Shown: positions 24,111 to 43,932 of the stretch, piece after piece
Position numbering within the stretch: position 1 is the stretch's first letter
How the letters are laid out: the number at the start of each line of letters is the position of its first letter
Source: Alphaproteobacteria bacterium
Lineage (GTDB): Bacteria; Pseudomonadota; Alphaproteobacteria; SP197
Length of the DNA: 64,000 nt
Assembly (NCBI GenBank): GCA_965228895.1
Contig: OZ245842.1
Location: forward strand, 2,720,001-2,784,000
Direction: 5' to 3'
Notes under the pieces: generated by a model
Databases searched by the model: none
What the model was told of the DNA's origin: nothing
What the model saw: the letters and a program-made list of their open reading frames with translations, nothing else
Program-made: the position numbers and the translations under genes

Positions 24111-24755
24111 ATGAAGGTTGCGGTGTTCATTTCCGGGCGCGGCAGCAATCTGCAGGCGCTGATCGACCGCTGCGCGGACGGCACGATCCCCGCCGAGATC
24201 GGCTTGGTCCTGTCGAACCGGCCGGACGCCCAAGGTTTGACGCGGGCCGATCAGGCCGGCATCCCGACCGCCGTTGTCGACCACAAGACGTTCAGTACGC
24301 GTGACGACTTCGATGCGGTGCTCGACCGCACGGCGCGCAAGGCCGGCTGCACGTTCATCTGCCTGGCCGGCTTCATGCGGATCCTGACCGATCGGTTCAC
24401 GCGCAACTGGCGCGACCGCATGATCAACATCCATCCGTCGCTGTTGCCCGCCTTTCCGGGCATCAACTGCCATGCCCGCGCGATTGAAGCCGGCGTACGG
24501 ATCTCCGGCGCGACCGTCCACTTCAGCCGGCCCGAACTGGATGCCGGACCGATCATCGTTCAGGGCGCCGTACCGGTTCTGCCCGACGACGACGAGGACG
24601 CACTCGCGGCGCGGATTCTCGATGTCGAGCACCAGATCTATCCTCTGGCGCTGAAGCTGATTGCCCAAGGCCGCATCACCGTGCGCAACGAGATCGTCCG
24701 GATCGACGACGCCGACTTTGTCGACGGCATCATGATCAATCCGTTGCCGGATTAG
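24111..24755 (+). CDS. purN: phosphoribosylglycinamide formyltransferase
   Basis: ISGRGSNLQAL, LAGFMRIL, INIHPSLLP, GATVH, D.GPII.Q, EH..YP. Confidence 0.97.
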   Translation: MKVAVFISGRGSNLQALIDRCADGTIPAEIGLVLSNRPDAQGLTRADQAGIPTAVVDHKTFSTRDDFDAVLDRTARKAGCTFICLAGFMRILTDRFTRNWRDRMINIHPSLLPAFPGINCHARAIEAGVRISGATVHFSRPELDAGPIIVQGAVPVLPDDDEDALAARILDVEHQIYPLALKLIAQGRITVRNEIVRIDDADFVDGIMINPLPD

Positions 24756-40363: not shown

Positions 40364-41632
40364 ATGTCCGCGAGCAAAACCTTCATTCGTAGCGTCGCCT
40401 CCATCGTCCTGATTGTGGCCATATCTGTCATGGCGCCGTCCGCGCGTGCGCAGGACTCAATCCGCATCGCGGCGGTCGTCAACGACCACGCAATTTCTGT
40501 TCTGGACGTGTTCGAGCGCATGGCGATCGTCTTCGTGACCGCAAACCTGGAGGACACCCAAGAAATTCGCCAACGCCTGTTTCCCCAGGTGCTGCGCACC
40601 TTGATCGACGAACGCCTGCAGATTCAGGAGGGCGAGCGGATCGGATACACCGTGAGCGAGGGACAACTGACCGCGGCGGCACAGCTTGTTGAGCAATCCC
40701 TTGGTCTGCAACCTGGCCAGCTGGACTCCTATCTGTCATTCAACCGCCTGAGCCGCGATGCGCTGATGAGCGAGCTGGAAGCAGAGATCATGTGGACGCG
40801 TTTGGTTCAAGATCGGATGCGCGACGACAATATTTCCGACGAAGAGGTCACCGAGATTCTGGAGCGCATCGAGGCAAGCTCCAACGAGCGCTCGTTTCTG
40901 TTGGCCGAGATTTTCCTCGCCGTCGACGAGCCAGAACGCGAAGGTGAGATTCTGGCCAATGCGCAACGCCTGGCGGAGGCACTGCGCTCCGGCGCAAGCT
41001 TCTCCGCCATCGCTCGTCAGTTCTCGCAAAGCGCCAGCAGCGCGACCGGCGGCGATCTGGGGTGGATCTTCGAGACCCAGTTGACGGATGAACTGCGCAG
41101 CGTCGTAACGCAAATGCCCGTGGGATCGCTGTCCCAGCCCATTCGCGTCATCGGCGGGTATGCCCTGGTGCTGTTGCGTGACGAACGCGTCGGCTTCGGC
41201 GCCACCGATCCGGATCCACCGATTGTTATGCGCCAGGCGTTGCTGCCGGTCCAGGCAGCGGCGACCGAGGAGGAACTGAGCCTTCAGGCAGCGGAAATCA
41301 AAGAGGCCATTGCCACTTGTGATGATCTGGATACGCTGGCCGCCAGCTTTCCCGCCGCACAATTCAGCCCGCCCATCACGCTGCGCATGAGCGAGTTGCA
41401 GCCGGTTTTCACGGATACAGTGAACAGCCTGCCGACCGGGCAGCCGTCCGAACCGGTCCGCACCGAGCTTGGCTACCACATTGTCCTTGTCTGCGAACGT
41501 TCGGAGTCATCAGGGGGGCTGCCCACGCGTCAGGAAATTCGTCAGACACTTGAAGACGAACAGTTCGACCTGGTCTCGCGCGGCTATCTCCGCGACCTCC
41601 GGCGCCAGGCGTTTGTCGACATCCGCATCTAG
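40364..41632 (+). CDS. surA: SurA-like periplasmic peptidyl-prolyl isomerase/chaperone
   Basis: IAAVVN...IS, LIDE.LQ.QE, F...ARQFS.S.S...GGDLGW, YLRDLRR.A..DIR. Confidence 0.9.
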   Translation: MSASKTFIRSVASIVLIVAISVMAPSARAQDSIRIAAVVNDHAISVLDVFERMAIVFVTANLEDTQEIRQRLFPQVLRTLIDERLQIQEGERIGYTVSEGQLTAAAQLVEQSLGLQPGQLDSYLSFNRLSRDALMSELEAEIMWTRLVQDRMRDDNISDEEVTEILERIEASSNERSFLLAEIFLAVDEPEREGEILANAQRLAEALRSGASFSAIARQFSQSASSATGGDLGWIFETQLTDELRSVVTQMPVGSLSQPIRVIGGYALVLLRDERVGFGATDPDPPIVMRQALLPVQAAATEEELSLQAAEIKEAIATCDDLDTLAASFPAAQFSPPITLRMSELQPVFTDTVNSLPTGQPSEPVRTELGYHIVLVCERSESSGGLPTRQEIRQTLEDEQFDLVSRGYLRDLRRQAFVDIRI

Positions 41633-41656
41633 GGCCCGGATGCGGCGCGCTGGGCT

Positions 41657-42532
41657 GTGAACCCCGACAACCAGACGGCGCTCGACAATCTGCCGCCGCT
41701 TCGCGACGTCATTGCCCGCCACGGCTTGGCGGCGCGCAAGTCGCTGGGGCAAAACTTTCTGCTCGACGAGAACCTGCTGGATCGGATTGCGCGTGCCGCC
41801 GGGCCGCTCAACGACGCGCACGTGGTCGAGGTCGGCCCCGGTCCGGGCGGCCTGACCCGTGCCCTGCTGCGCGCGGGCGCACGCCGCGTCACGGCCATCG
41901 AAAAAGACCGTCGCGCCATCGCCGCGCTCGACGAACTCGCGGCTCTAGCAGGCGGACGCTTGACGATCATGGAAGGCGACGCGCTCGGCACGCCACTGTC
42001 CGGTCTGGCCGACCAGCCGCTGACCGTCGTCGCCAACCTGCCTTTTAACATCGCGACCCCACTGCTGATGTCGTGGCTGGAGGCGGCCGAACCGATTGCC
42101 TCGATGACCTTGATGTTCCAGCGCGAAGTCGCGGCCCGGTTGACCGCCAAGCCACGCACCAAGGACTATGGCCGGCTGGCGGTCGCGGCGCAGTGGCGCT
42201 GTTTGGTCAAGCGATGTTTCGACGTACCGCCGCGCGCCTTCGTGCCCCAACCCAAGGTCGCGGCCAGCGTGGTTCACCTGGATGTCATGGCCGCACCGGT
42301 CTTCCCGGCCGATTCCCGGTGCTTGGCGGCAATCGTCAAGGCGGCCTTTGGCCAGCGCCGGAAAGCCTTGCGCAATGCCTTGGGCGCGCTCGTCGATGAT
42401 CCCTTGAGCCTGCTCGAAACCGCCGACATTGACCCTGGAAGGCGGGCCGAAGAGCTGGAAATTGAGGAATTCGCGCGTTTGGCGCGTGCCTATGAAGCCA
42501 TCGCGCACAAACCGATTGGCGCAGACGGCTAG
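41657..42532 (+). CDS. rsmA: 16S rRNA (adenine1518/1519-N6)-dimethyltransferase
   Basis: LPPLRDVI, KSLGQNFL, EVGPGPGGLT, ANLPFNIAT, MFQREVA.R, AFGQRRK.LR. Confidence 0.97.
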   Translation: MNPDNQTALDNLPPLRDVIARHGLAARKSLGQNFLLDENLLDRIARAAGPLNDAHVVEVGPGPGGLTRALLRAGARRVTAIEKDRRAIAALDELAALAGGRLTIMEGDALGTPLSGLADQPLTVVANLPFNIATPLLMSWLEAAEPIASMTLMFQREVAARLTAKPRTKDYGRLAVAAQWRCLVKRCFDVPPRAFVPQPKVAASVVHLDVMAAPVFPADSRCLAAIVKAAFGQRRKALRNALGALVDDPLSLLETADIDPGRRAEELEIEEFARLARAYEAIAHKPIGADG

Positions 42533-42576
42533 TTGATGTAAATCGCTACCGCTTCTTGACGAAACCGGAAACGGCC

Positions 42577-42678
42577 ATGACCGCCAGCCTTGCCATCGGA
42601 CGACGACGACGACGCGCTCTTCTTGGGCGTGCGGCCGTGCGTCTTGGCGTTGGTGGTATGGCATCCCTTACCGGATGA
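42577..42678 (+). CDS. candidate leader peptide (33 aa, MTASLAIGRRRRRALLGRAAVRLGVGGMASLTG)
   Basis: ATG 42577 to TGA 42676-42678; CGA CGA CGA CGA CGC run; the stop lies in the hairpin loop; no clear RBS. Confidence 0.3.
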   Translation: MTASLAIGRRRRRALLGRAAVRLGVGGMASLTG

Positions 42679-42710
42679 TCACTCCGGCGCGGGTCGATCG
42701 GCAGCCGCTT
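42595..42710 (+). ncRNA. speF-leader-like cis-regulatory RNA
   Basis: ACGACGACGAC run, GGCATCCCTT, hairpin CCGGA-TGATCAC-TCCGG and GCGGGTCGATCGGCAGCCGC, directly upstream of a GNAT gene. These resemble, from memory, the alphaproteobacterial speF leader; not searched. Confidence 0.6.
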
Positions 42711-42750
42711 GGCGTGCTGGCATAGATTCGACGACCCGGAGTTTCAGACC

Positions 42751-43272
42751 TTGTTTCACATTATCGAAGAACGGCTCTCAGACGAGGAAGCCGTAAAGAC
42801 GTTGGCGCGGCTTGCGCTTGGCAACCGGATGACGGACAGCCCGGCGGCACGCCTGCGTGCGGCAAGCGCTCCGGTACCGGGGCTTAGCCTGGTCGCGCTC
42901 GAAAACGACGATCTCGTCGGTACGATTCGGTTCTGGCCGGTGATGATCGGCGCCGGCGTCAAGGCGGTCCAACTGGGTCCGGTTGCGATCGAACCCAGCC
43001 ATCGCGGCCGTGGCATCAGCCGCCTGTTGATCCGCTATGGCCTGGAGCGTGCGCAGGCCCAAGGGCACCGCATCGTCGTCTTGATCGGCGAACACGCGAT
43101 CTATGAACGTTACGGCTTTAGACCCGCCGCGCCACTGGGCATCACGCTTGCCGAATACGAAGACCGCGATCGCCTGCAAGTCCTGGGCCTTGCGCCAGGC
43201 GTTCTTGACGGCCTTCGAGGCTGCGTTCGCCCCGACGACACCTTCGATGCCGACGACCGGCGTTTCGCCTGA
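42751..43272 (+). CDS. GNAT family N-acetyltransferase (YhbS-like)
   Basis: RLR....PVPGLSLVA, LVGTIRFWPV, LGPVAI.P..RGRGI...LI, LIG....YERYGF; TTG 42751 after GGAG. Confidence 0.88.
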   Translation: MFHIIEERLSDEEAVKTLARLALGNRMTDSPAARLRAASAPVPGLSLVALENDDLVGTIRFWPVMIGAGVKAVQLGPVAIEPSHRGRGISRLLIRYGLERAQAQGHRIVVLIGEHAIYERYGFRPAAPLGITLAEYEDRDRLQVLGLAPGVLDGLRGCVRPDDTFDADDRRFA

Positions 43273-43281
43273 GGTTTGTTG

Positions 43282-43932
43282 CTAACCCTCGTCCAGCTCG
43301 CGACTCATCTCGCTGATGAACGCGCCCAGACCGACTTGGCGCTCCCGGCGCAGACGCTCGGCGCGCAGGATGTCGCGGACGCTTTCAACCGACGTGTCGA
43401 GATCCTGGTTGATGACGACGTAGTCGTACTCGCTCCATCGCGACATTTCGTCACTGGCACGGCTCATACGGTGCAACACGACGTCTTCAGGATCGGATGC
43501 GCGGCTGCGCAAACGATCGTGCAATTCGCTCGCAGATGGCGGCAGGACGAAAACTTGCACCAGGTCCGAAGGCATGCGCTCGCGCAGTTGCTGGGCGCCC
43601 TGCCAATCGACATCGAACAGGATGTCCTGGCCGGCAACCAACGCAGCCTCGACCGGCGCGCGTGGCGTGCCATAGCTGTGGCCAAAGACCGTCGCATGTT
43701 CCAGCAAGTCCCCGTTCTTCACCATGGCCGCAAAGGACCCGTCGTCGATAAAATGATAATGCGTTCCGTCTTCCTCGCCGGGCCGCATGGGGCGCGTGGT
43801 GACCGAAACCGAGAGGATCAGATTGTCTTCACTCTCAAGCAGAGCCGCTGCAATCGTGGACTTGCCCGCCCCCGATGGCGATGACAGGACCAGGAGCAAA
43901 CCGCGGCGCTGGACGAGATTACCGTTCATCAT
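43282..43932 (-). CDS. gmk: guanylate kinase
   Basis: RRGLLLVLSSPSGAGKST, SVSVTTR..RPGE.DG..YHF, YGTP, FDVDWQG, EYDYV.IN. Confidence 0.97.
   Translation of the reverse strand: MMNGNLVQRRGLLLVLSSPSGAGKSTIAAALLESEDNLILSVSVTTRPMRPGEEDGTHYHFIDDGSFAAMVKNGDLLEHATVFGHSYGTPRAPVEAALVAGQDILFDVDWQGAQQLRERMPSDLVQVFVLPPSASELHDRLRSRASDPEDVVLHRMSRASDEMSRWSEYDYVVINQDLDTSVESVRDILRAERLRRERQVGLGAFISEMSRELDEG

Follow-up and report, generated by a model that had tools for sequence, protein, structure and literature searches.

A conserved upstream reading frame with tandem CGA codons precedes YhbS-like acetyltransferase genes across Alphaproteobacteria

Comparison of orthologous loci revealed a short upstream open reading frame (uORF) with a run of CGA arginine codons before genes of a stand-alone GNAT acetyltransferase, a real, class-wide and apparently undescribed element in Alphaproteobacteria. 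At the sequence level, the start codon, reading frame, codon and spacing of this leader were conserved, and it is very probably a translated control element. The full model, an attenuator that senses the supply of Arg-tRNA and switches expression on when the ribosome stalls, seems on balance probable. The locus came to attention in a 64,000-nucleotide stretch of an alphaproteobacterial genome (the window; coordinates below refer to it). An earlier note on this DNA had proposed ribosome-coupled control by a uORF with tandem CGA codons, and the conservation of the reading frame among orthologues agreed with that proposal.

The leader occupies a 218-bp gap, read from the sequence, between the stop codon of rsmA at 42532 (41657..42532, + strand, TIGR00755) and the TTG start of the GNAT gene at 42751. 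Checks of the sequence, reading frames, genes and domains confirmed the layout that the earlier note had described. A 33-codon uORF runs from the ATG at 42577 to a TGA at 42676-42678 (42577..42678, +), and has counterparts in orthologue loci. Codons 9-12 are CGA (42601-42612) and codon 13 is CGC, which gives a stretch of putative sensor codons at 42601..42615 (+). The TGA lies in the loop of a hairpin (42671..42687, +) with the arms CCGGA (42671-42675) and TCCGG (42683-42687). The GNAT gene, with its start placed by alignment, encodes 173 amino acids (42751..43272, +) and faces the convergent gmk (43282..43932, −, TIGR03263). Both rsmA and gmk lie outside the element. Upstream, surA is followed directly by rsmA at 41629-41657, with no room for pdxA, which usually sits between them.

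Two points were not supported. One was conservation of the hairpin around the uORF stop: its TCCGG arm was altered in the sister genome (L014), where the 3' arm at 42681-42687 was not conserved. Folding predicted that this arm pairs instead with the Shine-Dalgarno region of the GNAT gene, leaving the ribosome-binding site (42736..42742, +; GGAG at 42738-42741) sequestered. In RNA free of ribosomes, a long hairpin at 42574..42662 (+) was predicted to mask both the start of the uORF and its CGA codons; the predicted folding z value of the window's leader was −2.84, and none of 200 shuffles folded equally well. The other was a transcription start 3' of the ATG as the likely case, which a TTGACG at 42556 would imply. 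This hexamer was altered in L014, and a better-conserved −35/−10-like pair, TTGGCG and TAAATC separated by 17 nt (42516..42544, +), speaks against a start 3' of ATG 42577. Both hexamers of this candidate promoter, read from the sequence, were identical in L014, and RNA from it would begin near 42551, about 25 nt 5' of the uORF. The pair was compared with the alphaproteobacterial promoter consensus; it was absent from the output of a sigma-70 scan of the window.

Within the 64-kb window, (CGA)4 was found twice, against 0.06 in shuffles. The other copy (24584-24595, +) probably encodes Asp or Thr within a gene. In a rough gene-calling scan, the window's locus was the sole intergenic ATG-(CGA)4 uORF of its genome. 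A second match to (CGA)3, at 2695645 of the same genome, lay inside a ferredoxin-like gene and was discarded as a false positive of gene calling.

To follow the leader across the class, we collected GNAT-family loci, 30 from 41 relatives and 150 listed out of 189 matches. The 189 matches lie in 174 of 401 class genomes, and 39 weaker ones were left out of the locus set. De-duplication gave 171 loci, of which 2 had no upstream DNA, 16 were directly behind an ornithine decarboxylase (ODC) gene and 153 were stand-alone. The strict leader rule covered the region from 330 to 40 nt upstream and asked for a stop-free ATG at most 13 codons before the run; the wider rule allowed 16 codons. The thresholds were set after the first loci had been seen, and shared descent of the genomes makes the counts look more independent than they are. 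The frame contrast is nevertheless far beyond the effects of post-hoc thresholds or kinship among genomes.

A run of at least three CGA occurred upstream in 79 of the 153 stand-alone loci. The ATG shared the frame of the CGA codons in 70 of these, against 4 for the GAC frame and 4 for the ACG frame; the Asp and Thr frames were thus rejected, and a start codon in frame with conserved tandem cognate codons, as in a leader attenuator, was present in 70 of 79. The ACG frame, also named in the earlier note, is indeed open in the window as far as 42725, but no ATG, GTG or TTG stands ahead of its run. Shuffled sequences gave a mean of 0.08 leaders (maximum 1) against the 70 of 153, the reverse strand gave 0, and any other codon in the same test of the 153 loci gave at most 5. 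When runs of at least two were admitted, 89 of 153 loci had an in-frame ATG, against 3.95 expected; the corresponding counts were 9 for CGC and 6 for CGG. The wider rule raised the 89 leaders of the strict rule to 92 and left 61 of the 153 stand-alone loci with none.

The run was preceded by 6-9 codons in 72 of the 92 leaders and comprised two (20 leaders), three (57), four (13) or five (2) CGA codons. The uORFs were 9-83 codons long, with the stop directly after the run in 15 of 92, and the median distance from run to GNAT start was 146 nt. The next codon was for Arg in 32 leaders, 25 of them with CGT or CGC, which are read by the same tRNA as CGA. Leu immediately preceded the run in 31 leaders. 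Apart from the Arg run, the 92 leader peptides had no conserved residue. Since only the start, the CGA run and the spacing were conserved, the peptide was otherwise free and CGC runs were not enriched, the codon itself is under selection.

Of 68 families, 43 had the leader, as did 62 of 101 genera and, outside the window's own family, 81 of 129 loci; leaders were scattered across the whole protein tree (a quick tree with 59 of 168 inner branches open). Sinorhizobium meliloti and Shinella carry 10-codon uORFs that end in three Arg codons before the stand-alone GNAT copy, in addition to a paralogue linked to odc2. Of the ODC-linked copies, 0 of 16 had a run of at least three CGA with an ATG and 1 of 16 a run of at least two. 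The leader is dispensable where the GNAT gene has another leader. A TA dinucleotide peak 12-14 nt 5' of the uORF ATG (29 counts over three positions; the strict pattern in 13 of 92 leaders) suggests that part of the leader mRNAs are leaderless. In S. meliloti, the leader precedes the stand-alone GNAT at about 2645954 of CP090106.1, minus strand. As a matter of annotation, no gene is listed for this GNAT of strain Ak57 (L218; about 2645586-2646100) in the record, which is 3.7 Mb long and carries the label pSymB, and its reading frame there seems to be shifted close to the 5' end.

The main arginine tRNA has the anticodon ACG, read as ICG, and among the codons that it decodes CGA is the weakest. 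In the window's genome, CGA accounts for 5.8% of Arg codons, and CGC, with 51%, is nine times commoner. The tRNA-Arg set of this genome comprises ACG, CCG, CCT and TCT; without a TCG tRNA, CGA therefore needs inosine wobble. In a his-leader assay in Salmonella, CGA was translated more slowly than CGU and CGC (PMC4046918). A class-wide pattern search for tRNA-Arg matched in 64 of 151 genomes and did not yield a tRNA set for each genome. It found the TCG anticodon in four genomes; the carriers noted were G049:C2:2427883, G228:C2:607070, G060:C6:94881, G032 and G077, and in G049, G228 and G060 it was present besides ACG. A (CGA)2 leader persists in two genomes that have an additional tRNA-Arg(TCG). 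Wobble is therefore no strict requirement, and arginine supply is slightly favoured over wobble efficiency as the signal. Genomes with this tRNA form a natural test set for CGA-based leaders.

We propose that a ribosome starts the short uORF and reaches two to five CGA codons about seven codons in. Because the main Arg tRNA reads CGA less well than its other codons, the time spent on the run would report the supply of Arg-tRNA(ICG), most simply a shortage of arginine. A ribosome held on the run would block its downstream pairing, the leader would refold and the acetyltransferase start would be left more open. A ribosome already past the run would give no such opening. We infer translation of the uORF in vivo, and the same standing applies to arginine as the signal and to the output step. 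A scan of 144 neighbouring ORFs, out of 196 extracted, at E ≤ 1e-12 gave no family of the arg pathway, although it left many ORFs without a family and picked their frames heuristically; it is thus the codons alone that point to arginine.

The controlled protein is a YhbS-like GNAT (PF13527) by profile match and predicted fold. It matched Pfam PF13527 with an E value of 1.4e-13 and the profile comparison with PDB 4RS2 (E. coli YhbS/HqbA) gave 1.6e-26. The structure model had a pLDDT of 95, and its best Foldseek match was again 4RS2 (TM 0.86, 27% identity), followed by AAC(2')-Ia and Eis. The earlier note had suggested a polyamine or amino-acid acetyltransferase, and the link to polyamines is only indirect. 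Paralogues lie directly behind ODC genes in 16 of 171 loci, ODC is the only recurring metabolic neighbour of the family, and a quick tree placed 17 ODC-linked copies in two groups within the leader-bearing part of the family. The conserved surface, however, is basic and argues against polyamines. Conserved basic positions include R36 (170 of 170), R141 (163) and R60 (151), together with R27, K30, R34 and R120, and the acidic ones are E7, E16, D114 and D138; the window's clade lacks R27 and K30. Polyamine and aminoglycoside acetyltransferases have acidic pockets. If the conserved basic residues face the acceptor site, as we assume, an anionic acceptor would fit this surface better than a polyamine.

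The closest solved structure thus belongs to HqbA, for which the acetylation substrate is undefined (PMC10710024). HqbA differs from this family in that its Hfq-binding D98 and E102 are not conserved here (the aligned positions 99 and 103 are acidic in 67 and 30 of 170) and in that the family has extra conserved Arg and Lys residues. Excerpts of PMC10710024 mention no Arg leader for HqbA. Upstream of the stand-alone genes (L039-L194), a divergently oriented gene for a short-chain dehydrogenase or a flavin-reductase-like protein is frequent; other recurrent neighbours are ApaG, rsmA and glutathione transferase genes.

The same uORF might instead respond to decoding quality or to a general slowing of ribosomes, which we consider rather unlikely. 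The signals would be A34-to-I editing or another modification of the tRNA-Arg anticodon loop, or ribosome-targeting antibiotics, and the target of the GNAT would be part of the translation apparatus, an RNA or an inhibitor. Strict use of CGA, not of any Arg codon, and the absence of arg-gene neighbours would suit such a sensor. Rare and common Arg codons worked alike in Salmonella orf34 (PMC6386406), so the strictness may point beyond arginine. The fold neighbours AAC(2')-Ia and Eis are consistent with it, and the basic conserved surface could bind RNA. The RRR peptide fits the macrolide arrest motif R/K-X-R/K, and antibiotic-sensing uORFs exist (PMC12583479, PMC12121999). However, if arrest depended on the peptide, CGC or Lys codons would be in use, and these were not enriched. 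The persistence of leaders in the two genomes with a TCG tRNA and the lack of conservation of HqbA's Hfq-binding acidic pair also argue against a sensor of this kind.

Acetylation of glutamate or a similar anionic acceptor would connect the Arg leader with the odc link. The GNAT would then be a new alphaproteobacterial N-acetylglutamate synthase (NAGS), the leader a class-wide attenuator of the first step of arginine synthesis, and the odc-operon copies would supply ornithine for polyamine synthesis. This idea is tentative, and we think it improbable as it stands. It would account for the Arg leader, the odc link, the basic acceptor surface, the lack of classical ArgA and the co-occurrence with argG. 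ArgJ was present and classical ArgA was not found in the window's genome, and argG occurred in 164 of 174 GNAT-positive against 121 of 227 GNAT-negative genomes. We used argG as the marker instead of argC, since type-2 ArgC straddles the threshold, and the sample included G063 only as a non-matching row. The GNAT was present in only 26 of 94 small argG-positive genomes, so genome size confounds the co-occurrence. Leader loss in argG-negative genomes (1 of 7 keeps it, and that genome is 80% complete) was rejected as support, because small argG-positive genomes are also leaderless (1 of 10 keeps it) and size explains the loss. A GNAT without an argB match in G194 and a sub-cut-off argB match in G333 count mildly against an obligatory arg role. 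The family failed the S-NAGS models (PRK07922/PRK07757), with 18 bits for the window's protein against a cut-off of 180 and a best E value of 1e-4 among 19 members, and the arg-gene clustering typical of S-NAGS was represented by 0 arg families in the 144 neighbouring ORFs. Several unrelated GNATs serve as NAGS, and none of this YhbS-like family is named as one in excerpts of the same papers (PMC1382215, PMC3827942, PMC7311316, PMC13759103).

Returning to the attenuator, we modelled a stalled ribosome as a 30-nt footprint on the run and computed the cost of opening the GNAT start region. The footprint lowered this cost by 1.97 kcal/mol on average in the 89 of 92 leaders that were folded and by a mean of 2.06 kcal/mol in the 85 leaders of at most 300 nt. 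In the latter set, the change was below −1 in 46 leaders and above +1 in 7. With the footprint placed between the start codon and the run, the change was −2.0 to −2.4 kcal/mol; it shrank to −0.6 when the footprint lay 27 nt beyond the run and to about 0 kcal/mol at 36-60 nt beyond. Five spacer shuffles retained an effect of only −0.35 to −0.76 kcal/mol, and the CGA run was paired with a value of 0.69 against 0.55 in the shuffle. At the family level, these computations point to translational attenuation with the stall as the ON state. The direction was computed for the family and not for the window's own leader, where the predicted stall switch was absent in the equilibrium model. There, covering the run changed the opening of the ribosome-binding site by only −0.4 to −0.6 kcal/mol and the Shine-Dalgarno sequence stayed paired to 42681-42687; a ribosome near the stop changed it by about −3 kcal/mol. 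The footprint effect was +2.0, in the opposite direction, in the sister L014 and 0 in L018 and L019.

This weak response of the window's leader would also suit an Arg-codon sensor with Rho-dependent termination or mRNA decay as its output. Such an output has a precedent in Salmonella orf34-speF (PMC6386406), and the spacers are mildly C-rich (C/G of 1.2 in leader loci against 0.99 in leaderless ones). We judge it unlikely. The C bias is weak, the family-wide effect on the ribosome-binding site is centred on the run, and terminator-like sites were found in only 6 of 92 leaders (0.8 in shuffles); the window's leader contained no intrinsic terminator.

It is very unlikely that this lineage retains only a decaying remnant of the leader, or that the CGA repeat is a protein-binding site in RNA or DNA with an incidental ORF. 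Decay has its examples. In L020, TGA replaces the first CGA, and between it and the two CGA codons that are left there is no ATG to restore the frame, a possible inactivation or assembly error. The leader was lost in 12 of 15 genomes of genus g4 of the window's own family (L022-L033), and in L028 and L032 the GNAT gene directly follows rsmA. The clade also lacked a conserved structure, with no consensus among 8 close leaders and a covariation term of +0.3. A binding site, however, would not be expected to produce the 70:4:4 frame bias. Moreover, the sister genome keeps the uORF start, the run (5 CGA) and the stop at the same places, and the leader was identical in a second study's assembly, with 0 listed differences over 42533-42750.

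That the leader is a divergent member of the Rfam speF family, an orphan riboswitch candidate, as the name "speF-like" in the earlier note implied, is vanishingly improbable. No Rfam match reached the gathering score in the window, RF00518 gave no match at 42400-42900 down to an E value of 10, its best match in the genome (E 0.76) lay away from this locus, and the leader failed the score of 37 bits, so divergent membership is refuted at the sensitivity of this model. RF00518 was over the cut-off in 5 of 141 class genomes. The six best matches, real or near-threshold, all precede ODC, a CGA run preceded by an ATG is absent from all of their leaders, and their consensus has no motif in common with the CGA leader. 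The speF element sits before COG0019 genes, and binding of ornithine, lysine or polyamines by its RNA was not found in the described tests (Corbino et al., PMC1273637). The window's leader precedes the GNAT gene and then the convergent gmk, not a COG0019 decarboxylase. Both elements are alphaproteobacterial, and the sole support for membership is that paralogues of the GNAT are frequent in speF/odc operons. All six speF matches (L043-L048) share a short motif before the match, and in L043 an Rfam ar45 match lies just upstream; the odc operon may thus have a single 5' leader of which ar45 forms one half and speF the other.

The nearest described system, by analogy, is Salmonella orf34-speF, in which ribosomes that pause when arginine is low promote expression of the gene downstream (PMC6386406). 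Both have a short uORF with consecutive Arg codons and a link to ornithine metabolism. The orf34/SpeFL leader is gammaproteobacterial, controls a decarboxylase and has a conserved peptide core (DUF2618) with a swappable AGG-CGG, as described in PMC6386406, whereas the CGA leader is alphaproteobacterial, strictly CGA, free of peptide conservation and directed at a GNAT. No HIRRT-type core was present in the 92 leaders, and the window's leader does not precede speF.

The classical leader-peptide attenuators are trpL, hisL, leuL and thrL. They resemble the CGA leader in that about seven codons precede the tandem cognate codons of a short ORF, which is often leaderless and lies 100-200 nt ahead of the gene. 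Unlike them, CGA leaders mostly lack an intrinsic terminator between leader and gene (0 in the window's leader, present in 6 of 92), the target is not a known biosynthetic enzyme, and the predicted output is translational. The trpL attenuator of S. meliloti is described in PMC10117765. Literature searches brought up no account of a CGA leader, and excerpts of that paper and of PMC13285730 (with its supplement), PMC12218461, PMC8632094, PMC11109978 and PMC10385936 make no mention of one; the supplement of PMC10117765 or subscription journals might list one.

The presence of the leader in the model organism S. meliloti makes it directly testable. Defined by one codon and no peptide, it would serve as a clean natural reporter of how CGA is decoded. 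A leader usually reflects the pathway of the gene under its control, so this one also offers a first functional handle on the YhbS-like family, for which E. coli, too, has given no substrate, and directs attention to arginine/ornithine metabolism or tRNA-Arg function. Outside the window, at 579218-579300 (+) of G000:C1, another intergenic uORF carries (CGA)3 five codons past its ATG and lies 261 nt 5' of a gene whose product resembles an M24 peptidase by eye; it may be a second CGA leader or a chance occurrence.
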